Assembly: GCA_030697375.1 (NCBI GenBank)
Contig: JAUYQD010000071.1
Coordinates: 27,088-91,087, forward strand
Reading direction: 5' to 3'
DNA from: Rhodoferax sp.
Lineage (GTDB): Bacteria; Pseudomonadota; Gammaproteobacteria; Burkholderiales; Burkholderiaceae_C
Length of the DNA stretch: 64,000 nucleotides
Shown here: piece after piece, positions 661-20,509 of the stretch
Numbering within the stretch: position 1 is the first letter of the stretch
Layout: each line of letters opens with the position of its first letter
Made by a program: the position numbers and the translations under genes
The notes under the pieces: generated by a model
What the model was told of the DNA's origin: nothing
Databases searched by the model: none
The model's input: the letters and a program-made list of their open reading frames with translations, nothing else

Positions 661-3933
<3,273 letters not shown>

Positions 3934-3954: not shown

Positions 3955-4611
3955 TCAATTCAGGCTGGCGGTGGCCAATTTGGCCCCGAACCACACAAAC
4001 AAGCCCCCAACTGCGCTGGACAGGCTGGCTGACACACGCTTGCGTCGGCTGAAGGCTTGCGCAAGGCGGGCTCCCGCAAAAATCAATGCGGACAAATACA
4101 GGGCGCTAAAGGCCATGACGATGGCACTCAAAATCAGAAATGGCACGGCGGGTGTTTCGTAGGTCGGATCGATGAACTGCACAAAGAACGACAGCAAAAA
4201 CAATATCGCCTTGGGGTTCAACAGGCTGATCACCAAGGCCCGCTTGAAGGGGTGCGCCAGATGGATGGGGAGCTCCTGCGCCACGGCAACCGAAGCCTCC
4301 GTCTTGCGCCATTTCTGGACAGCGGCCACTATCAGATTGACACCCATCCAGGCCAGATACGCTGCGCCGGAATACTTGACCACCATGAACAAGGCCGGAT
4401 TGCTGCGCAGCAATCCCGCCGCACCCAAAGCGGTCGCCATCAACAAAATGGTGTCCCCCACAAATACACCCACGGCCCCTTGGTACCCGGCTTTGATGCC
4501 GCGCGCGGTGGCCACCGACAGTACAAACAAGGAATTGGGTCCGGGCAACAAAATGATGCCCAAAGCGCCAAACACGTAAGTCCACAAGTCGGTCACACCG
4601 TAGAAGCTCAT
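3955..4611 (-). CDS. leuE: LysE/RhtB-family leucine efflux protein
   Basis: 218 aa hydrophobic protein with LPGPNSL and LLNPKAILF motifs; ATGA overlap with the carA stop. Confidence 0.88.
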
Positions 4612-5786
4612 GCGCGCTTGTCCACTTGCGTTGCCATCTCCCGGATGAAACGGTCAAACAAATAGCCAATATCCGACGGACCCGGCGAAGCCTCAGGATG
4701 ACCCTGGAAGCAGAACGCGGGCTTGTCCGTGCGCTCCAACCCTTGCAGCGTGTTGTCAAACAGGCTGATGTGGGTGGGTCGCAGGTTCGCCGGCAAGGAC
4801 TTTTCGTCCACCGCAAACCCATGGTTCTGGCTGGTGATACTGACACGGCCACTGTCCAGGTCTTTGACCGGATGGTTGGCACCGTGGTGACCAAACTTCA
4901 TTTTGAATGTCTTGGCACCCGAGGCCAGCGCCATGATCTGGTGTCCCAGGCAAATACCAAAGGTGGGAATGCCCGTTTCAATCAACTCCGCCACCGCCGC
5001 AATGGCGTAGTCACAGGGCTCCGGATCACCGGGGCCGTTGGACAGGAAAACGCCGTCGGGTTGGTATTTCAGCACCTCGGCGGCAGACGTTTGTGCAGGC
5101 ACCACCGTGACTTTACAACCGCGCTCGGCCAACATCCGCAAGATGTTCTTTTTGACACCAAAGTCGTAAGCGACCACATGGAACGTGGGCGCCGTTTGCT
5201 GGCCGTATCCGGCGCCCAAAGTCCACTCGGACTCGGTCCAGTCGTAGCTGCTGGCGCTGGATACCACTTTGGCCAGGTCCAAACCTGCCATATTGGGTGC
5301 GGCCTTGGCCGCCGCCACGGCTTTTTCGACCACGGCGCTGGTGACCGATTCGCCAGGGGCCAGGGCCAAGATGCAGCCATTTTGTGCCCCCTGGGTGCGC
5401 AACTTGCGCGTCAACTGGCGGGTATCGATATTGGCAATCGCCACAGTCCCCTCCGCCACCAGGTATTCACTTAAGCCCTGGTTTTTGCGGAAGTTGGAGG
5501 CAATGAGCGGCAGATCCTTGATGATCAAACCTGCGGCATGCACTTTGTGGGACTCGACGTCTTCGGGATTAACCCCGTAGTTGCCGATGTGGGGATAGGT
5601 GAGCGTGACAATCTGCTGGCAGTAGCTCGGGTCTGTAAGGATTTCCTGGTAGCCGGTCATGGACGTGTTGAACACGACCTCTCCGACGGTAGAGCCAGCG
5701 GCTCCAATGGAATTTCCAATATAGACCGTGCCGTCTGCAAGCGCCAAAATGGCGGGGGGGATGGTTCCCTTTAAAGACAAAAGCAC
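4608..5786 (-). CDS. carA: Carbamoyl-phosphate synthase small subunit
   Basis: [29 protein letters not shown] (catalytic Cys) and [11 protein letters not shown]; GTG start at 5786 chosen over the longer ORF. Confidence 0.97.
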
Positions 5787-5909
5787 TGGATTCTCCGGAT
5801 GGGGTTTTCGGGTACGCCCAAACGCGCTCAAGAGACAACTCTCGGCTTGCTGCTTAAAGGGGATTGGCTTGAGGGGGCTCTGGACGTACAGGATGCGGTG
5901 AAGCCTCCC

Positions 5910-5915
5910 ATTATA
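5910..5915 (-). promoter_or_regulatory. Candidate sigma70 -10 hexamer for the carA operon
   Basis: Perfect TATAAT on the minus strand about 125 nt upstream of carA; no clear -35. Confidence 0.4.
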
Positions 5916-5975
5916 GCCGAGGGGGGGCGTGTTATCCCTGAAAAGACTTGCTACCTTGGGGCAAGTCAGCCCAGC

Positions 5976-6788
5976 TTACCTCTGGAGCTGCGCTGTAGCA
6001 CTGGCGTGCAGGCAAATCGCGGCGGCGGCGGCCACGTTGAGCGACTCCTCTCCGCCGGGCTGCGCAATGCGCACATGCAGCTGGGCCATCGCCTCCAACT
6101 CGGAACAAACACCCTGCCCTTCGTGCCCCAGCGCCCATGCGCACAGCGTAGGCAGCTCCTTAGTTTGCAGCGCCTGGTGCAAAAATGAGCCCCGATGCGA
6201 GCTGGTTACAAGAATCGGCAACGCCAGTGCTGCCAAATCCGGCAGCTCCACACCTTCGGTGAGCTGCAAGCCCCAATGGGCCCCCATGCCGGCGCGCAGC
6301 ACCTTGGGGCTCCACAGGGCGGCCGTTCCCTTGAGGGCGATGATCTGCTTAAAACCAAAGGCCGAGGCACTGCGCAAAATGGAGCCGACATTGCCCGCAT
6401 CCTGCACGCGGTCCAAAATGACGGAGGCCATGGCAGGCTGTAGCGCGGCTGCATTGGGCAAATTCACCACAAAACCCATGCTGGCGGGTGACTCCAGACC
6501 ACTGATATCACGGAACAGTGCGTCCGGAATCACTATGTTTTTAATAGCTGCTTGCGCCCAATCTACGGGGGCTAAAGGCCTGGACTTGGGGTTTTGCCAA
6601 AATGACTCGGAAAAAACGCCGACTTCGGGCTGCACACCCCGCACCATCGCCGCACGGCACAGGTGGTCACCCTCGGCCCAAAAACGGCCCTGCTTGCGGT
6701 ATGCGGTGTTGTCCTGTGCCAGCCGGCGCAGGTCCTTCAAAAAGGCATTGTCCCGCGAGGTGATGTGCTGGGCTGGAGCGGCACTCAT
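5976..6788 (-). CDS. TrmH/SpoU-family RNA methyltransferase
   Basis: [18 protein letters not shown] and [18 protein letters not shown] motifs. Confidence 0.92.
6130..6171 (-). repeat. Dispersed 42-bp spaced motif, copy inside the TrmH-family CDS
   Basis: GCTGC AAACTAA GGAGC TGCCTACGCT GTGCGCATGG GCGCT; exact spacing, but the most divergent copy. Confidence 0.55.
6532..6573 (+). repeat. Dispersed 42-bp spaced motif, copy inside the TrmH-family CDS (antisense)
   Basis: ACTAT GTTTTTA ATAGC TGCTTGCGCC CAATCTACGG GGGCT. Confidence 0.85.
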
Positions 6789-8558: not shown

Positions 8559-9353
8559 TCAACGCACGATGCCACGCTGGGGCGAAACTTGGGATAAAAA
8601 CGACTGCATCATCTCCACATCGGGCGCGGCCTCAGGAATACTGAGCGTCAACTCTGCGATACGCACGCGTGCAGCTTCCAGTGTCAGGTCGTCGCGGTAC
8701 AGTGCCTTGTGCATGGCTTTGACGGCAGCAATGCGTTCCGGCGAAAAGCCACGGCGACGCAAGCCTTCAAAGTTCATGGAACGTGCTTGCGCGGGCTGGC
8801 CCTGGCACATCACGAAGGGAGGAAGATCGGCAAACAGCAAAGTGCACATGGCCGTCATGCTGTGGGCACCGATTTTCACAAACTGGTGCACCACGGTGAA
8901 GCCCCCCAAAATCGCCCAATCCCCCACATGCACATGGCCTGCCAGCTGGGAGTTATTGGCAAAAATAGTGTTGTTGCCCACCACACAGTCGTGGGCCAGA
9001 TGTACATAGGCCATCAGCCAATTGTCGTTCCCCACGCGTGTAATACCTGTGTCACCGGGAGAACCGATGTTGAAGGTGCAAAACTCGCGGACCGTATTGC
9101 GGTCTCCAATGATCAGCTCGCAGGGTTCACCCGCGTATTTTTTGTCTTGCGGAATTGCCCCCAACGAACTGAATTGGAAAATCCGGTTGTCTGCACCAAT
9201 GGTGGTGTGGCCTTCAATCACGCAGTGCGGACCAATGGTGGTGCCGGGGCCCACCTTGACGTGCGGCCCAATCAGCGTATAGGGCCCTACCGTCACCGAG
9301 CTGTCCAACTCGGCTCCAGCGTCCACAATCGCGGTGGAGTGAATCGTGGTCAC
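8559..9353 (-). CDS. lpxA: UDP-N-acetylglucosamine acyltransferase
   Basis: Hexapeptide repeats, PQDKKY and HLAHDC; GTG start. Confidence 0.97.
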
Positions 9354-10858: not shown

Positions 10859-11368
10859 TTACTTGGAACCTGTGTTCAGGATCTTGAGTACCTTGTCGGT
10901 GATGTCATGCTTAGCGTTGCTGTACACCACTTCCTGAATCACCAGATCGTATTTCTCGGCCTCAGCCACCTGTTTTACAGCTTTATTGGCCTTCTCCAGA
11001 ACCTGTTGCAACTCTTCGTTCCTGCGTCCGTTCAGGTCCTCCTGGAACTCACGTTGCTTGCGCTGCAGATCCCGATTGAGCTCTGCAAACTCTTTCTGAC
11101 GGTTCACCCTTTGCGTTTCTGTCAGCGTAGGCGCATCCCGTTCAAATTTCTCGCTGAACGATTTCAAGGAACCTTGCAGATCTGCCAGGTCCTTTTGTCG
11201 TTTGGAAAACTCTTGCTCCAATTTGGCCTGGGCGGCCTTGGCCGGTCCGGATTCGGTGGTGATACGTTGGGTATTGATGTAACCCGTTTTGGAGTCCTGC
11301 GCCATGGCACCAACCGCAGCAACGGCAAGAACAAGACCAAGCCACAAGTTCGACTTAAATGTTTTCAT
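10859..11368 (-). CDS. skp: Skp/OmpH periplasmic chaperone
   Basis: Signal peptide, coiled-coil body, DITDKVL end; sits between bamA and lpxD. Confidence 0.93.
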   Translation of the reverse strand: MKTFKSNLWLGLVLAVAAVGAMAQDSKTGYINTQRITTESGPAKAAQAKLEQEFSKRQKDLADLQGSLKSFSEKFERDAPTLTETQRVNRQKEFAELNRDLQRKQREFQEDLNGRRNEELQQVLEKANKAVKQVAEAEKYDLVIQEVVYSNAKHDITDKVLKILNTGSK

Positions 11369-13668
11369 TAGAAAGTTGTCCCAATTTGAAATTGCATGCT
11401 CTGAATTTTATCGCTATCGAACTGTTTGATGGGTCTGGCAAAGGCCAATCGCAAAGGGCCCACTGGTGAAATCCAGCTGATCCCCACGCCGAACGAACTG
11501 CGCATATCCCCCAATTGAATGGCTTCGTCGGCACCATAAATACCGCCAGCATCCACAAAGCCATACATGCGTAGGGTTCGGTCATTGCCACCACCCGGCA
11601 GGGGGGAAAGCAACTCTGCATTGAAGTTTATTTTTCTCGACCCACCGGTTGCCGTAGGAACGGCCTGAAGCCGCTGCGCACCGGTGGTCAAACTCCCCTG
11701 TTCAAACCCGCGAACCGAACCCAATCCACCGGAGTAGAAATTCTTGAACACCGGGTAAGAGGTGCTGGCGGTACTCGCCCCCAAAGACAACTCTGCGTTG
11801 AACGCAGCAGTCACCTTTTTCGAAATGGGGAAAAATTGCTGGTACTGTGCAGTGCCACGCGCGTAGCGCAATTCACCGCCCACACTCCACTCACCCGAGG
11901 TGCGCATCACCTTGCCCACGCTGGGAACCAAGGCGCTGTCCCGTGTGTCACGCGCCCAGCCAATGGTTAATGGAACCGCATTGGTGGTGAAACCAAACTC
12001 ATTGGTGAAATCCTGGTACACCGTCGGCAACAATGTGCCGGGCACCACAGTCGTGCGGTCTACACCGCCCCCCACATACACCGTGTCGGTATCGGTGAAG
12101 GGAATGCCAAAACGCATACTCGCGCCGGTGGTCTCGATGGAATAGCTGTCCAGGTCTACATAGGGTTTGGAATTTCTTTGGTAGAGGTCAATCGTTCGGG
12201 AAACACCATCATCGGTAAAGTAAGGATTGGTGGTATTGAAAACGATGGTTCTATTGACCTTGCTCGTATTCACTTCCATACCCAACGAATTGCCTGAGCC
12301 AAACGCATTGTCTTGCTTGAATCCAAACGTAAAGCCCAATCCTTCGCCACTGGAAAGACCAGCGCCCAAGCTCAAGCTTCCCGTGGGCTTTTCCGCGACA
12401 GTAACTGTCAAGTCCACCTGATCGGGTGATCCTGCGACCTCGTGCGTTTCCAAAGATACTTCTTTGAAATAACCCAGGCGATCGACCCGATTGCGGGATT
12501 GGCGAATTTTTTCGCCGTCATACCAGGCTGCTTCCAATTGGCGGAACTCACGGCGAATCACTTCGTCACGGGTACGGTCGTTTCCTGCCACATTGATTCG
12601 GCGAACATACACACGGCGCGAGGGGTCTGCGCGTAAAGTGATTTCCACACGGTTGCTCGTCCGATCCATTTGAGGAACCGCCTCCACCCGTGCAAATGCA
12701 AAACCAAAGTTGCCAAAGTAGTCGGTAAACGCCTTGGTAGTTTGGGCCACCTGGTCTGCGTTGTAGGCTTCACCGGCCTGAATGGAGATCAATGACTGGA
12801 ACTCTTCGTCCTTGCCAAGGTAATTGCCCGCAAGCTTGATCTTTGAAACTACAAACCGCTCCCCCTCAGTCACATTGATGGTGATGCTGATGTCTTGCTT
12901 ATTCGGGGAAATAGCGACTTGTGAGGAATCCACCTTGAACTCCAAATAACCTCTGGCCAAGTAGTAAGAGCGCAAGGTCTCAATATCCGCATTCATTTTG
13001 GTGCGGGAATACCGGTTGGATTTGGTGTACCAGGTGAGCCAACCGCCCGTGTCCTGGTCAAAAAGACCACGCAATGTGGACTCTGAAAAAGCCTTGTTTC
13101 CCACGATGCGGATGTCGCTGATTTTTGCAGTATCGCCCTCCACCACCGCAAAACTCAAATTCACCCGGTTGCGATCGATAGGGGTCACCGTGGTGATGAC
13201 CTCAGCAGCGTACATGCTGCGATTGATGTACTGGCGCTTGAGCTCTTGCTCAGCCCGGTCCACCAGCGCTTTGTCAAACGGCCGACCATCTGCCAATCCA
13301 ATATCCCGCAAGGCCTTTTTCAACACCTCTTTGTCAAACTCTTTCGTGCCCGAAAAATCCACATCGGCAATGGTGGGGCGCTCTTCTACGATCACCACCA
13401 ACACGCCGGAATTCGCCTCAATACGAACGTCCTTGAACAAACCCAGGCCAAACAGTGCCCTGATGGAGGCTGCAGCTTTTTCATCGCTGTATGTGTCGCC
13501 CACCTTGACGGGCATGGAGGCAAAAATCGTTCCCGCCTCAACCCGCTGCAGCCCTTCCACACGGATATCGCGCACCGCAAAGGGCTCCAATGCCCACGCA
13601 GAATGCACCGCCAAAACAACCGCAGAAGCACAAAAAGTTCTGTGCAGAAAAGTACGACTAAATTGCAT
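11368..13668 (-). CDS. bamA: Outer membrane protein assembly factor BamA
   Basis: POTRA repeats (DIRVEGLQRVE), VRGFEQG loop and terminal FQIGTTF. Confidence 0.97.
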   Translation of the reverse strand: MQFSRTFLHRTFCASAVVLAVHSAWALEPFAVRDIRVEGLQRVEAGTIFASMPVKVGDTYSDEKAAASIRALFGLGLFKDVRIEANSGVLVVIVEERPTIADVDFSGTKEFDKEVLKKALRDIGLADGRPFDKALVDRAEQELKRQYINRSMYAAEVITTVTPIDRNRVNLSFAVVEGDTAKISDIRIVGNKAFSESTLRGLFDQDTGGWLTWYTKSNRYSRTKMNADIETLRSYYLARGYLEFKVDSSQVAISPNKQDISITINVTEGERFVVSKIKLAGNYLGKDEEFQSLISIQAGEAYNADQVAQTTKAFTDYFGNFGFAFARVEAVPQMDRTSNRVEITLRADPSRRVYVRRINVAGNDRTRDEVIRREFRQLEAAWYDGEKIRQSRNRVDRLGYFKEVSLETHEVAGSPDQVDLTVTVAEKPTGSLSLGAGLSSGEGLGFTFGFKQDNAFGSGNSLGMEVNTSKVNRTIVFNTTNPYFTDDGVSRTIDLYQRNSKPYVDLDSYSIETTGASMRFGIPFTDTDTVYVGGGVDRTTVVPGTLLPTVYQDFTNEFGFTTNAVPLTIGWARDTRDSALVPSVGKVMRTSGEWSVGGELRYARGTAQYQQFFPISKKVTAAFNAELSLGASTASTSYPVFKNFYSGGLGSVRGFEQGSLTTGAQRLQAVPTATGGSRKINFNAELLSPLPGGGNDRTLRMYGFVDAGGIYGADEAIQLGDMRSSFGVGISWISPVGPLRLAFARPIKQFDSDKIQSMQFQIGTTF

Positions 13669-13715
13669 GTTTACCGATCTAAGTACTCGGGGAAATCCGG
13701 CATGACTGCGGACCA

Positions 13716-15086
13716 TCAACCCACCAAACGCATGACATCATTGAATATCGCAACGGTCATCATCAGCAGCAAAACCGCCAACCCCAGTTTTTGAAACCGC
13801 TCCATCCACGATTCCGAGACGGGCTTCCCGGTCAGCAACTCCCAAAGATAATACATCAGGTGCCCACCATCCAAAACCGGCAAGGGAAGCAGATTCAGCA
13901 CCCCAAGGCTGATGCTGATCAGCGCCAGAAAAATCACAAATGGCGTAAACCCAACCGCCGCCGACTTGCCCGCATAGTCGGCAATAGTCAGTGGCCCGCT
14001 CAGGTTCTTCAGAGAAGCGTCACCGGTCAGGATTTGTCCCATCATGTTCAGCGTCAAGACCGACACCTCCCAAGTCCGCGTGATGGCTCGCTCCACGCCA
14101 TCCGACGGCCCGTAACGAACTGTCTTCATCGCAGGTTGCGCGCCAATGTATGCCCCGACGCGCCCCACGGCAACATCTCCTTCTCGTTCCACCTTGGGCG
14201 ACACAGCGATGGTGAGCCGGGTACCGGCACGTTCCACCAGCCATGCCTGGGAACCTGCGGTGCCCGAACTCCCGGACGCCCGAATCAAGTCCCGCAATTG
14301 ACCAGCGTCCACTATTTCAAGCTGATCTACGCGCAGCACCCAATCCCCGGACTGCAAACCCGCTTGCTTTGCAGCGCCAGCTTCTGCCAAATCACCCAAC
14401 CTGGCTTGTGAAAAAGGGCCCAATATCCCGATACTTCGGAACATTTGCACATCGGCGTGGTGCGTGTCCATGCCAGCAATGTCCAAAACTACCTGCCTAA
14501 CCTCACCATGGGCGTCTCTACCAGGTGCAACATACTCCACCTGAAGATTACGGTGGGCCAATGCTGCCCGCGTCAACCACCAACGAAAATCTTCAAACGA
14601 AACCACTTCTTTCAGAGAGTCGCCGTCAAATGCCACGCGCCGAACCTGTTCGCCCCCTACCAGCCCGGCCCGTGCGGCGATAGAAGCCACGGCTGGGCGC
14701 GACAACACCGCTTGTGCTTGCTCCACACCGCTCCAATTGACCCAGGAATACAAAACAACTGCAAATATCAAATTGGCAAGTGGGCCCGCAGCAACAATAG
14801 CGGCCCTAATGCGCACTGGCTGAACATTAAAAGCCCGTGCACGCTCATGGGGCAATACAGCGCCTTCGCGTTCGTCCAGCATCTTCACATAGCCCCCCAA
14901 AGGAAGCAGCCCCACCACGAATTCAGTGCCAGATCTGGCCGATGTCCATCCCAACAAGCGCGGACCAAATCCAACGGAAAACCGTAAAACCTTGACACCG
15001 CAGGCTACCGCTACGCCATAGTGCCCCAACTCGTGGACGGCAACCAAAATGCCAATGGCGAAAATAAATGCGGCAACCGTCTGCAC
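13716..15086 (-). CDS. rseP: RIP metalloprotease RseP
   Basis: HELGH, PDZ region and NLLPLPVLDGGH; GTG start. Confidence 0.96.
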   Translation of the reverse strand: MQTVAAFIFAIGILVAVHELGHYGVAVACGVKVLRFSVGFGPRLLGWTSARSGTEFVVGLLPLGGYVKMLDEREGAVLPHERARAFNVQPVRIRAAIVAAGPLANLIFAVVLYSWVNWSGVEQAQAVLSRPAVASIAARAGLVGGEQVRRVAFDGDSLKEVVSFEDFRWWLTRAALAHRNLQVEYVAPGRDAHGEVRQVVLDIAGMDTHHADVQMFRSIGILGPFSQARLGDLAEAGAAKQAGLQSGDWVLRVDQLEIVDAGQLRDLIRASGSSGTAGSQAWLVERAGTRLTIAVSPKVEREGDVAVGRVGAYIGAQPAMKTVRYGPSDGVERAITRTWEVSVLTLNMMGQILTGDASLKNLSGPLTIADYAGKSAAVGFTPFVIFLALISISLGVLNLLPLPVLDGGHLMYYLWELLTGKPVSESWMERFQKLGLAVLLLMMTVAIFNDVMRLVG

Positions 15087-15104: not shown

Positions 15105-16304
15105 TCAGGCTGAAAAGCGCTGGATTGCGCCCTCGGCGGCATGCCTGGAAAGGTGATCCAAAGCCAGCAGATCAGTCAATGAACCAGGAGGGCAAGGCGT
15201 TATGGCCTCCAACGTTTCAGCATTGACATGGTGAATCTGGTCAAACCGGATTCTGCGTGCCAAAAAGGCAGCAACTGCAACTTCATTGGCTGCATTGAGG
15301 ACTGCTGTGGTGCCTGGCAAGGCATTCAGGACAGCCCAAGCCAACGCCAAACCAGGAAACCGTAGTTGATGGTCTTGCGTATCCATGGCCTCAAAGCTCA
15401 GATTGGACATGGCCGAAAAATCCAGTGCCGAGGCGCCCGAACTCACGCGGTGAGGCCAAGACAATCCATAAGCAATAGGGCCGCGCATATCGGGTGTACC
15501 CAGTTGTGCGACAACTGAGTTGTCCACATACTGAACCATCGAATGGATCACGCTTTGCGGGTGGATAACCACCTCGATTTTCTGTGGCACTAGACCAAAA
15601 AGAAATTTCGCTTCAATGACCTCTAGGGCCTTGTTCATCATGGTGGCGGAGTCCACCGAAATCTTTCGACCCATCACCCAATTGGGGTGGGCACAGGCTT
15701 CTTCTGGAGTGACGTCTCGCAAGGTCTGCGGAGCTCGGGTTCGGAAGGGCCCCCCGGATGCCGTAAGTATGATTTTGTCCACCCGGGAGGCCCAATCGGC
15801 CGGATTTTCCGGCAATGACTGAAAAATGGCCGAATGCTCACTGTCAATCGGCAGCAGTGTCGCGCCACCCGCGACCACGGTGTCCAGAAACAACTGCCCC
15901 CCCACCACCAAGGCTTCCTTGTTGGCGAGCAAGAGCCTCTTTCCGGTCCGCGCTGCCGCAAGGCATGGCGCCAATCCCGCAGCCCCCACGATAGCAGCCA
16001 TCACGATCTGGGCCAACTCATGCCCTGCCACCATTTCAATAGCCTCGCCGCCCCAGAGCACTCGGGTCCGCAAGTCCAAGGATTGGCAAGCAGCCTCCAG
16101 CGCCAATCCGTGGGTTTCACTGGCCATCACAGCAAAAACTGGCTTGAACTTGATGCATTGGGCAAGCATCAATTCAATGCTGGTGGAAGCGGTAAGGGCA
16201 AACACCTCAAAGCGATCAGGGTGCCGCTCAATGACATCCAGTGTACTAACACCAATGGAGCCGGTGGATCCCAGCACGACGACGCGGCTTTTTTCTAACT
16301 TCAT
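15105..16304 (-). CDS. dxr: 1-deoxy-D-xylulose-5-phosphate reductoisomerase
   Basis: LGSTGSIG, LANKE, PIDSEH and HPNWVMGRKISVDSATMMNK. Confidence 0.98.
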   Translation of the reverse strand: MKLEKSRVVVLGSTGSIGVSTLDVIERHPDRFEVFALTASTSIELMLAQCIKFKPVFAVMASETHGLALEAACQSLDLRTRVLWGGEAIEMVAGHELAQIVMAAIVGAAGLAPCLAAARTGKRLLLANKEALVVGGQLFLDTVVAGGATLLPIDSEHSAIFQSLPENPADWASRVDKIILTASGGPFRTRAPQTLRDVTPEEACAHPNWVMGRKISVDSATMMNKALEVIEAKFLFGLVPQKIEVVIHPQSVIHSMVQYVDNSVVAQLGTPDMRGPIAYGLSWPHRVSSGASALDFSAMSNLSFEAMDTQDHQLRFPGLALAWAVLNALPGTTAVLNAANEVAVAAFLARRIRFDQIHHVNAETLEAITPCPPGSLTDLLALDHLSRHAAEGAIQRFSA

Positions 16305-17146
16305 AAGGTACTCAGCATCATTGCCAATGGAAGAATCGGTAACAAGGCATCCACACGGTCCAATACACCGCCGTGCCCAGGAAGCAGCCCGCTGCTGTCT
16401 TTGACACCCGCACTGCGTTTGAACAGGGACTCGACAAGGTCCCCAACCACGCTCATGGTCGCAAGAAACACAACGCCCAGCACCATGAAAGCCGGACTGA
16501 TGCCCCCCATTCGACTGTACAAACTGGCTTGATCAGCTGGGCCAGAACCGTCCAAAGACCGCCAAACGAATGCGCACAGCAGCACGCCCAACATACCACC
16601 GCACACCCCCTCCCACGTCTTCCCAGGACTGATGGAGGGCGCCAGCTTACGCGTGAAGAAACGCCCCCCAAATGCCCGGCCAGCAAAATAGGCAAATATG
16701 TCGGCGATCCACACCAAGACCAGGACTGAGAAAAGAAAGTTGATGCCCATCATGCGGGCTTTGGCAACCGCCATCCATGCCACCCATAAGGCCAGGACCC
16801 CACCACCCAAACGCAGCCCCTGCGGCACAGTGCCCCATGCATTCACCCCTGCACGCAAAAGCCAAGCGCCAAGCACCACCCAGGCAGCACCCGCAAGTGT
16901 CCAAAGCATATGGGATGGGGCTTGCAGCATGCCTGCTGACCAAGACACCAGACAGATTCCCGCACACAAACCAGCAAGGGCCAGAGACGCTGCCTGACCG
17001 CATTGGTTGAGTTTGGCCCACTCCCATGCACCGGCGGCGATCAATACCACAGCCAGTGCGCTAAACGCCTTAGGATCTGGGTAGAAAACGGTTGGAAGCA
17101 AAATCGCCAGCATCACGATGGCAGTAATAATTCTCTGCTTCAGCAT
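16301..17146 (-). CDS. cdsA: Phosphatidate cytidylyltransferase
   Basis: Starts MLKQRIITA; SPGKTWEG and DSSGLLPGHGGVLDRVD. Confidence 0.96.
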   Translation of the reverse strand: MLKQRIITAIVMLAILLPTVFYPDPKAFSALAVVLIAAGAWEWAKLNQCGQAASLALAGLCAGICLVSWSAGMLQAPSHMLWTLAGAAWVVLGAWLLRAGVNAWGTVPQGLRLGGGVLALWVAWMAVAKARMMGINFLFSVLVLVWIADIFAYFAGRAFGGRFFTRKLAPSISPGKTWEGVCGGMLGVLLCAFVWRSLDGSGPADQASLYSRMGGISPAFMVLGVVFLATMSVVGDLVESLFKRSAGVKDSSGLLPGHGGVLDRVDALLPILPLAMMLSTL

Positions 17147-17359
17147 TGAACACCCTCGGTTAGGTATGGATACAGGCACCGGCTCCACTTGGCACAAAGT
17201 TCCAGCAAATGGCAACGGATAGGGAGCATAGCCCAGTCATGCTGACGCGAGAGCTCGCGTGGTGAATTCTCGTGGCGATCAGTGCCCATCCACATGGGTG
17301 GCCATGGATGGGCATGAATGAGCCTAGCTCACCCAATACGCACAGACTTTAGGAAAGTG

Positions 17360-17920
17360 TCAAACCGCCATGATGTCTTGTTCCTTGGCGGCAACAAGAC
17401 GGTCCACTTCCACAATATGCCTATCGGTCACTTTTTGAATTTCAGCTTCTGAACGCTTTTGCTCGTCCTCCGAAGCCAGCTTCTCTTTCACCAGCTTCTT
17501 CACAGCCTCATTGGAATCACGCCGCAAATTGCGAACTGCAATTTTGGCACTCTCTCCTTCGCTGCGCACCAACTTGGTCAGCTCGCGCCGACGCTCTTCG
17601 GTCATGACAGGCATAGGAACTCGGATCAAATCCCCCATGCTGGACGGATTCAAACCCAAGTCACTGTCGCGAATGGCTTTTTCAATTTTGGCGCCCATTC
17701 CTTTTTCCCACGGCTGCACGCTCACCGTTCTGGAGTCCAACAGTGAAAGATTGGCAACCTGACTCAAAGGAACCATGGACCCGTAGTAATCCACCTGAAC
17801 GGAGTCCAGCAGTGCCGGGTTGGCACGGCCCGTACGGATTTTTGAGAGATTGTTCTTGAAAGCACTGATGGACTGGTCCATTTTGCTTTCCAAATTTCTT
17901 TTTATTTCATCAATTGCCAT
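17360..17920 (-). CDS. frr: Ribosome recycling factor
   Basis: [12 protein letters not shown] and RNLRRD; 186 aa. Confidence 0.98.
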
Positions 17921-17969
17921 TTTTCATCCTCACATCACCAAAGCCAATGCAATAGAGCCCAAATGCTCT

Positions 17970-18692
17970 TTACACGTGCACAAGCGTCCCTTCATCCTCA
18001 CCCATGACCACGCGTTTCAAAGCGCCGTGTTTAAAAATGGAAAACACTTTGATGGGCAGCTTTTGATCACGACAGAGCGCGAAAGCCGCAGCATCCATGA
18101 TGCCTAAATTTTGCCGCATTGCATCGTCAAAAGTAAGGCTGGTGTAACGGGTAGCCAGAGGATCTTTTTTGGGATCCGCCGTGTAAACACCATCCACTTT
18201 GGTCGCCTTGAGCACAATTTCCGCACCAATTTCCGCACCGCGCAAGGCCGCCGCTGTATCAGTCGTAAAGAAAGGATTGCCCGTTCCGGCTGCAAAAATG
18301 ACGACTTTGCCCTCTTCCAAATACTGCAAGGCCTTGGGCCGCACGTACGGCTCAACCACCTGCTCTATCCCGATAGCAGACATCACACGGGCAATCAACC
18401 CGGCCTTATTCATGGTGTCACCCAATGCCAGGGCATTCATAACGGTCGCCAACATGCCCATGTAATCTGCCGTAGCTCGGTCCATTCCAACGGAACCGCC
18501 TGCCACGCCCCTGAAGATATTGCCGCCGCCAATGACAACCGCAACCTCCACACCCAAGCGCGTCACTTCGGCAACTTCGTCCACCATACGCACGATGGTG
18601 TCCCGATTGATGCCGAAGTGGTCGTCACCCATCAAGGCCTCGCCCGAAAGCTTCAGCAGTATTCGCTTGTATGCCGGACGTTCTTGGTTCAT
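17970..18692 (-). CDS. pyrH: UMP kinase
   Basis: [15 protein letters not shown] and [16 protein letters not shown]; alternative start at 18713. Confidence 0.97.
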
Positions 18693-18747
18693 GGATGACT
18701 CTTTCAGTTGCATAGGAATTGGCTCAATACTTCAAACAAATTGCAAA

Positions 18748-19671
18748 TCAAGCAGCCTGCTTTGCCGCAGCGATTTGGGCAGCCACTTCACCTGCAAAAT
18801 CATCAACCTTCTTCTCGATGCCTTCACCAACCACGTACAAGGTAAAGCCTTTGACGGTCGTTCCTACGGACTTGAGCATTTGCTCCACAGTCTGCTTGTC
18901 ATTTTTGACAAAAGTCTGATTGAACAAAGACACTTCTTTCAGGTATTTTTGTACACCGCCATCAATGCGTTTGGCAACAATTTCTGGCGACTGAACCGGC
19001 TTGCCAGCAGCGGTTGCTACAGCTGCATCTTCTGCAGCCTTGGCAGCAGCCACAGAACGTTCACGCTCCACCAACTCCGCAGGCACGTCACCACTGGACA
19101 GTGCAACGGGTTTCATGGCAGCCACATGCATGGCCACATCCTTGGCGGCGACTTCGTCACCCTCAAACTCCACCACCACGCCAATGCGCGTGCCATGCAG
19201 ATAAGACGCCAACTGGGCGCCCGTTGCAAAACGTTTGAAACGGCGGAAAGTCATGTTCTCGCCGATTTTTCCAATCAGACCTTTGCGAACATCTTCCAAT
19301 GTAGGACCAAAACCATCTTGAGAATACGCAAGCGCGCCCAATGCAGCCACATCGGCCGGGTCATTCTTGGCAATCAAAGACGCAGCCGCATTGGCCAAGG
19401 CCAAAAAGCTGTCATTCTTGGTGACGAAATCGGTTTCGCAATTGACTTCAATCAAGGAACCAACGGTACCTTCGATGCAGCTTGCCACGACACCTTCAGC
19501 AGTGATACGCGCAGCTGCCTTGCCAGCCTTGCTTCCCAGTTTGACACGCAGCAACTCTTCTGCTTTGGCCATATCGCCTTCAGCTTCTGTCAGCGCTCTC
19601 TTGCATTCCATCATCGGTGCGTCGGTTTTTCCACGCAGTTCAGCAACCATGCTCGCGGTAATTGCAGCCAT
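18748..19671 (-). CDS. tsf: Elongation factor Ts
   Basis: [12 protein letters not shown] and EVNCETDFV. Confidence 0.98.
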
Positions 19672-19756: not shown

Positions 19757-20509
19757 TCAGGCAGAAGCTTCACTCACCTCAACAAACTCATCTTCACTCT
19801 CAGCCACAACTGCCTTGACCACATCGTCAACTGCGTTGGCACGGCCTTCCAGGATAGCGTCTGCAATGCCACGGGCGTACAAAGTCACCGCCTTGGAGGA
19901 GTCATCATTGCCAGGAATGACGTAATCAATACCTTCGGGAGAATGGTTGGAATCCACCACACCGATCAAAGGAATGCCCAGCTTGCGCGCTTCAGCGATA
20001 GCAATTTTGTGGTAACCGACGTCGATCACGAAAATCGCATCTGGCAAAGTCGTCATATCCTGGATGCCGCCGATGTCTTTTTCCAGTTTTGCCAACTCAC
20101 GAGCAAACATCAGTTGCTCTTTCTTGCTCATGGAGTCCAAGCCAGCTTCTTGCTGAATCTTCATGTCTTTCAGACGCTTGATGGAGGTCTTGACCGTCTT
20201 GAAATTGGTCAACATACCGCCCAACCAGCGCTGATCCACATAGGACACACCAGCGCGCTGCGCTTCTTCAGCCACGGTTTCGCGGGCTTGGCGCTTGGTA
20301 CCTACCATCAAAATGTTGCCGCGCTTAGCCGACAGTTGGCGAACAAACTTGGCCGCCTCCTGAAACATCGGCAGCGACTTTTCCAAATTGATGATGTGAA
20401 TCTTGTTGCGATGGCCGAAAATAAACGGGGCCATCTTAGGGTTCCAGAAGCGGGTTTGGTGTCCGAAGTGAACGCCGGCTTCCAGCATTTCGCGCATTGT
20501 TACTGCCAT
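19757..20509 (-). CDS. rpsB: 30S ribosomal protein S2
   Basis: [19 protein letters not shown] and IPGNDD. Confidence 0.99.

Follow-up and report, generated by a model that had tools for sequence, protein, structure and literature searches.

The window, by which the whole analysed stretch of 64,000 nucleotides is meant, derives from an uncultured organism of groundwater metagenomes and has an ordinary G+C content of 57%. On its minus strand the gene order is rpsB-tsf-pyrH-frr-(213 bp)-cdsA-dxr-rseP-bamA, without uppS, and the cluster continues downstream with skp, lpxD, fabZ, lpxA, lpxB and rnhB (Table 1). The location of uppS, the gene of undecaprenyl-diphosphate synthase (UppS), between frr and cdsA is among the steadier pieces of proteobacterial gene order. 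Neighbourhoods of rseP with cdsA, uppS, dxr, frr, rpsB and bamA constitute a recognised conserved cluster (PMC6411480). Compared with the rpsB-tsf-pyrH-frr-uppS-cdsA-dxr-rseP-bamA cluster of Beta- and Gammaproteobacteria, gene content, strand and order are unchanged here, on into skp-lpxD-fabZ-lpxA-lpxB-rnhB, with uppS replaced by 213 bp of non-coding DNA that appears to contain a 3' uppS stump. An earlier note on this DNA had proposed, from the letters alone, that uppS is missing from this position; its absence is borne out by the NCBIfam calls of the flanking genes and by a gap without a UppS ORF, and the spacing of only 213 bp proved exact (17147-17359).

Both neighbours of the gap are intact. 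The start of cdsA is the ATG at 17146, in agreement with the start in all relatives, and a Logan gene identical to this cdsA matches Pfam PF01148. The mechanical cdsA ORF reaches a TTG at 17215 (304 aa; 16301-17215), a 69-nt extension that ends inside the putative uppS remnant, and over-extension of cdsA by gene callers is possible at this site. Elsewhere in the window, a gene for a LeuE/RhtB-type amino-acid exporter (3955-4611) lies between carA (4608-5831) and carB (661-3933), with a 4-nt overlap with carA.

Table 1. Genes and proposed features of the cluster around the frr-cdsA gap, in transcriptional order of the minus strand.
Feature	Position	Strand	Basis
rpsB	19757-20509	minus	NCBIfam model match
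tsf	18748-19671	minus	NCBIfam model match
pyrH	17970-18713	minus	NCBIfam model match
frr (ribosome recycling factor), intact, 186 aa, upstream neighbour of gap	17360-17920	minus	TIGR00496, 218.6 bits against a cut-off of 149
5' part of gap, gap nt 1-84, uncertain origin	17276-17359	minus	about 74% identical to the L002 gap
Hairpin 2, perfect 10-bp inverted repeat TGCCCATCCA / TGGATGGGCA, 12-nt loop	17283-17314		inverted-repeat check and RNA folding
Putative uppS 3' remnant, gap nt 85-174, 90 nt, in-frame TGA at 17240-17242	17186-17275	minus	anchored alignment, last conserved 30 codons
Hairpin 1, palindrome ACGCGAG-AG-CTCGCGT, 7-bp stem, within the putative uppS remnant	17245-17260		inverted-repeat check and RNA folding
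Probable former variable tail and stop of uppS, and uppS-cdsA spacer	17147-17185	minus	Q-V codons 39 nt before the cdsA ATG
cdsA (phosphatidate cytidylyltransferase), intact, 281 aa, downstream neighbour of gap	16301-17146	minus	NF008635, E = 2e-36
dxr	15105-16304	minus	NCBIfam model match
rseP	13716-15086	minus	NCBIfam model match
bamA	11368-13719	minus	position, size and Pfam domains of the matching L162 gene

Relatives were collected by a CdsA protein scan, with one genome per species. The closest is Burkholderiales bacterium RIFCSPLOWO2_12_FULL_61_40 (L002; GenBank assembly MESI01), a MAG from the Rifle aquifer, whose CdsA and Frr are 89% and 99% identical to those of the window. This sister species is also without uppS; its frr-cdsA gap measures 243 bp and is homologous to that of the window at about 80% identity, with a 28-nt indel. 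In the GenBank numbering of the sister genome, dxr is OGB30759 and frr is OGB30761; the single number in between is presumably that of cdsA, and the gap therefore seems to hold no annotated gene. The same gap is present in an ENA assembly (L162), which was rejected as a third member of the lineage because it belongs to the same species as L002 and adds no new sequence. The 90%-identity protein cluster that holds the sister Frr (P0076, P0125, P0127, P0131) has a UppS as its representative, and among its members are proteins called UppS along with one labelled 'ribosome recycling factor' that is 356 aa long; two unrelated families have evidently become linked through gene calls in which frr and uppS are fused. 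Most members of the protein clusters are listed without an accession.

Beyond the sister species, the nearest relatives are MAGs of a Rhodoferax-like kind and contigs from metagenomes, with CdsA 55-73% identical among the matches listed. UppS is encoded between frr and cdsA in all 25 of the other relatives, among the matches listed, in which the interval is covered, and 11 genome loci of relatives carry clear UppS ORFs of 239-270 aa there. The frr-cdsA interval of relatives spans 746-834 bp, and 763-774 bp in the closest ones. Scanning metagenome contigs with CdsA for intermediate forms gave none among the matches listed, the best of which was 73% identical, with uppS in place wherever the interval was covered. 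The earlier note had allowed that relatives might routinely carry the gene elsewhere; they keep it in place. The gap shared by the two sister species, with uppS retained in the other relatives, points to a single loss in the ancestor shared by two uncultured species. In a Dehalococcoidia MAG (L056, 3653-5020), cdsA appears directly after frr, about 40 nt away by extrapolation of a partial alignment and with no uppS, which may be an independent absence of the gene in a different phylum.

The only ORFs in the gap encode 51 and 58 aa and match no family, against about 230-260 aa for a functional PF01255 ORF. The two inverted repeats named in the earlier note are both present, with arms at 17283-17292/17305-17314 (hairpin 2) and 17245-17251/17254-17260 (hairpin 1). 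The RNA fold of hairpin 2 has a free energy of -19.9 kcal/mol (z -2.8); the inferred deletion junction follows just 3' of the element, and L002 retains a hairpin at this site in a shifted register (-15.1 kcal/mol). Hairpin 1 covers the former D-E-A-A-L-D codons and is probably incidental, because it is weakened in L002 (-7.8 kcal/mol, z -2.5 in the window; -4.5 kcal/mol, z -0.4 in L002). Folding of the whole gap was no better than that of shuffled sequences (z = -0.7 and -1.3). No intrinsic terminator was detected on either strand of the gap, hairpin 2 being followed by CACTGATCG in place of a T-run, and no sigma-70 promoter consensus was found there. A REP- or MITE-like repeat was also sought, and neither the 64-kb window nor any of the loci fetched from outside the lineage contains a second copy of gap sequence exceeding 13 nt. 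Rfam 15 placed no family in the gap; its best matches reached 15.3 and 12.9 bits where 60 and 43 were required, and both lie inside cdsA. Between the window and L002, identity is 81% in the gap, 76% in the pyrH-frr spacer and 70% at four-fold degenerate sites of the neighbouring genes, which suggests that any constraint on the gap is mild. At most, hairpin 2 may serve as a structured RNA element where the translation genes give way to the envelope genes. Four-fold-site identity is uneven among adjacent genes (window 15105-18713 against L002 4404-8042), amounting to 55% in pyrH, 69% in cdsA, 73% in dxr and 88% in frr; this uneven synonymous divergence might stem from codon bias in frr or from a recent recombination.

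Similarity of the gap to uppS was examined in two ways, with and without regard to position. Unanchored nhmmer with a DNA profile of uppS from 11 relatives gave no remnant in the gap, unanchored Smith-Waterman alignment of the gap DNA stayed at the chance level of shuffled sequences, and a UppS protein HMM returned only negative scores on the six-frame translations. The tBLASTn comparison of UppS with the gap, which the earlier note had suggested, was likewise at chance level (p = 0.41 against 300 shuffles). Such tests are blind to position because the whole gene is searched against the whole gap, and an initial reading of 'no remnant' drawn from them was dropped after the in-register comparison. 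With the unanchored tests null, the case for a remnant rests on the flanking genes as anchors.

Read on the minus strand, the segment in question gives PREFTTRALASA*LGYAPYPLPFAGTLCQV, followed by 39 nt to the cdsA ATG. Against L003, 11 of 30 residues are identical in an ungapped alignment, in the same frame and with zero offset, and the distance to the cdsA ATG is 39 nt in both. The final 120 nt of the gap were then set against 18 relatives, with offsets of +/-9 nt allowed. The window reached z = 6.3, a score equalled by none of 2000 shuffles; this anchored test is independent of the boundaries of the profile described below, yet it too was devised after the in-register match had been seen. 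The same cdsA-anchored 120-nt test of the L002 gap gave z = 4.6 (p = 0.0015), though, with the scar confined to two species, the second copy is no independent confirmation of the first. A 90-nt profile built on the 3' end of uppS in 13 relatives, the boundaries of which were chosen after the alignment was seen, has the best of its 124 placements ending 39 nt before the cdsA ATG in both the window and L002 (p = 0.0008 and 0.0036, respectively, with the positional agreement not yet counted). In the window its mean identity is 0.426; best placements in shuffled gaps average 0.354 (sd 0.017), and the reverse strand gives at most 0.334. The last conserved uppS codons (Q-V) end 37-40 nt before the cdsA ATG in 11 of the 13 relatives, compared with the 39 nt of the window and L002.

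Within the remnant, identity per 15-nt bin ranges from 0.36 to 0.54, and it falls to a background of 0.16-0.30 upstream of the W-P-D-F codons. Coding capacity has been lost, with an in-frame TGA at different places in the window and in L002, and a Shine-Dalgarno-like GAGGG for cdsA at 17153-17157 is kept in L002 and L162. The segment thus combines what is expected of a uppS pseudogene remnant, namely similarity above chance (at the 3' end only), the correct strand, the register and lost coding. The resemblance of PFAGTLCQV to RFGKTSEQV, offered in the earlier note as a weak sign of the C-terminus, is real and larger than was noted, as it forms part of a 30-codon, in-frame and in-register stump that passes the anchored shuffle tests. 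These comparisons point to a real, eroded 3' end of uppS in the gap.

The 5' part of the gap is less readily assigned. In relatives, the site of gap nt 1-84 is occupied by the frr-uppS spacer and roughly the first 10-19 uppS codons. The two peptide readings of the earlier note, MATHVDGH* and PFAGTLCQV, are both found on the minus strand, in one frame, the former at 17279-17305. The N-terminal substrate-binding motif of UppS, H-I-A-I-V-M-D-G-N-G-R-W-A in relatives, is not present in the window, which has M-A-T-H-V-D-G-H-stop, and the best match of the motif profile starts at gap nt 46, with the motif of relatives mostly at nt 52-70. No consistent significance emerged across the ungapped, motif-profile and gapped tests of this part, as the anchored prefix test gave p = 0.066 in the window and 0.021 in L002, the DNA motif profile 0.14 and 0.63, and gapped local alignment 0.33 and 0.14. 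The comparison of MATHVDGH with IAIVMDGN therefore stands as to location, which is about right, but not as to similarity, since shuffles were not beaten in the window (p = 0.14, 0.07, 0.33). An N-terminal remnant of uppS is possible.

The 213-bp interval is read here, with good confidence, as the scar of an in-place deletion of uppS in a lineage that has a working copy elsewhere. About 550 bp of the uppS interval would have been lost in the common ancestor of the window species and the sister species, and the size arithmetic fits one deletion (764 - 213 = 551 bp). The frr stop codon would have been left untouched, as would some 30 conserved codons at the end of uppS, the tail, the spacer and the cdsA ribosome-binding site. 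The 3' stump is now non-coding and has drifted to about 43% identity with the uppS of relatives, and it may have survived because the sequence immediately upstream of cdsA, needed for cdsA-dxr-rseP expression, lies within it. The first 84 bp probably descend from the frr-uppS spacer and first uppS codons, no longer recognisable and reshaped into a stable hairpin. The proposed junction would fall just after hairpin 2, where small indels went on; the 28 extra nt of L002 and about 57 extra nt in a contig of run X5 (at 17284-17287) suggest that it kept changing in this way. An indel hot spot is seen at window 17284-17287, L002 5833-5862 and L162 about 8991-9020, and the 28 extra nt of the sister species form a third stable hairpin (GCCTACTCC/GGAGTAGGC, -17.2 kcal/mol). 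Replacement or a history of several steps could stand in for a single clean deletion, because the 5' half is without significant homology.

Two readings would remove the deletion altogether. A short gap produced by assembly or binning finds no supporting point, and its probability is practically negligible. The cdsA-gap-frr junction is spanned by contigs of runs X1, X2, X3 and X5, each from a different listed study, without loose ends there in X1-X3 (the X1 junction contig measures 4,927 nt at depth 53), and the sister species shows a homologous gap in two assemblies, a GenBank MAG and one from ENA. The earlier note had advised a check for misassembly; no collapsed gap was found, and with the junction spanned in runs of four different studies, the frr-cdsA junction is not a misassembly. 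A gap without uppS ancestry, consisting of inserted or regulatory spacer DNA that resembles the UppS C-terminus by chance, would agree with the null results of all unanchored tests and with a window-L002 conservation (81%) about that of the nearby intergenic spacer (76%). It is nevertheless improbable in view of the anchored results (z = 6.3; p = 0.0008 with exact position, right strand and frame) and of the presence of uppS at precisely the same site in every other relative examined.

If uppS was deleted in place, the question becomes where the working enzyme is encoded. Undecaprenyl-diphosphate synthase is essential for peptidoglycan synthesis, and the window holds a normal Gram-negative set of envelope genes (lpxA, lpxB, lpxD, fabZ, bamA, skp and rseP), so that, on established knowledge, a functional cis-prenyltransferase would have to lie elsewhere and to predate the deletion. 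No UppS homologue was found in the 64-kb window by tblastn with 14 UppS queries (best E = 0.005); that best match, at 2585-2752, is inside carB and was taken as chance. In run X1, where the organism's contigs have depths of 49.6-62.2, assembler contigs were aligned to the L004 cluster at >=80% DNA identity. This reference recovers the organism's pyrH, frr, cdsA (three patches; 72% protein identity) and dxr, and a joint on L004, from 5229 to 6001, skips exactly uppS. The uppS genes of L004, L017 and L005 gave no match to X1 contigs at depth 50-62, although a relocated copy could escape this search if poorly assembled or of unusual codon usage; matches on the three references came from at least eight other X1 contigs, at depths of 2.5-44 and >270. 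UppS identity among relatives is 69-84%, at least as conserved as CdsA, and the UppS of the sister genome is not among the 120 best homologues of the L004 UppS, none of which falls below 73% identity. The depth evidence speaks, though weakly, for a divergent or foreign gene as replacement and against a copy that has simply moved. An ordinary, vertically inherited uppS that was moved or duplicated before the original was deleted would be the simplest route to losing an essential gene from one place, and nothing in the window, 64 kb of a genome of presumably a few Mb, contradicts it; it is held to be rather unlikely, as cdsA was recovered in X1 at 72% protein identity yet no uppS match appeared at the organism's depth, and the sister UppS is missing from the list of close homologues. 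A cis-prenyltransferase encoded elsewhere, either gained by horizontal transfer or strongly divergent, is a serious if tentative possibility; its arrival would have made the resident copy dispensable by xenologous displacement. It agrees with the missing uppS match at the organism's depth and with the established need for a replacement older than the deletion, but no candidate gene has been found and the argument proceeds by exclusion, from contig depth and DNA-level matching. That the lineage has no UppS-family cis-prenyltransferase at all, and makes its lipid carrier by another route or does not need it, has the same missing match in X1 as its only point in favour and is very improbable beside a full Gram-negative envelope gene set in a window of ordinary G+C content; peptidoglycan-bearing bacteria without a cis-prenyltransferase are not known.

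A deletion of uppS in place would have left a scar much like the bacterial pseudogene fragments that arise from internal deletions, being short, non-coding, frame-disrupted and shared by descent between two species, and, as with such fragments, it is kept beside a gene whose expression signals overlap it. Most described gene remnants come from dispensable genes. UppS is regarded as universal, single-copy and essential, and it is an antibiotic target. Unlike most remnants, therefore, this one concerns a gene that is normally essential and single-copy, the loss of which implies a substitute elsewhere. The locus also resembles xenologous or non-orthologous displacement of essential genes, in that the function is gone from the ancestral locus in one lineage and neighbouring lineages keep uppS; in contrast to such cases, it is a candidate only, as the displacing gene was not found. 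A deletion scar of this kind would be ordinary in itself, and a little unusual in affecting an essential gene in a very stable operon. For the method, the lesson is that position-anchored tests can detect a real remnant missed by standard unanchored similarity searches. For the biology of the lineage, a dated, lineage-specific deletion with a visible scar would indicate that not even uppS is fixed in its ancestral operon, and it singles out a particular genome as the place to seek the replacement. A relocated copy would make this a routine genome rearrangement, and a foreign cis-prenyltransferase would make it a clean example of the displacement of an essential envelope gene.
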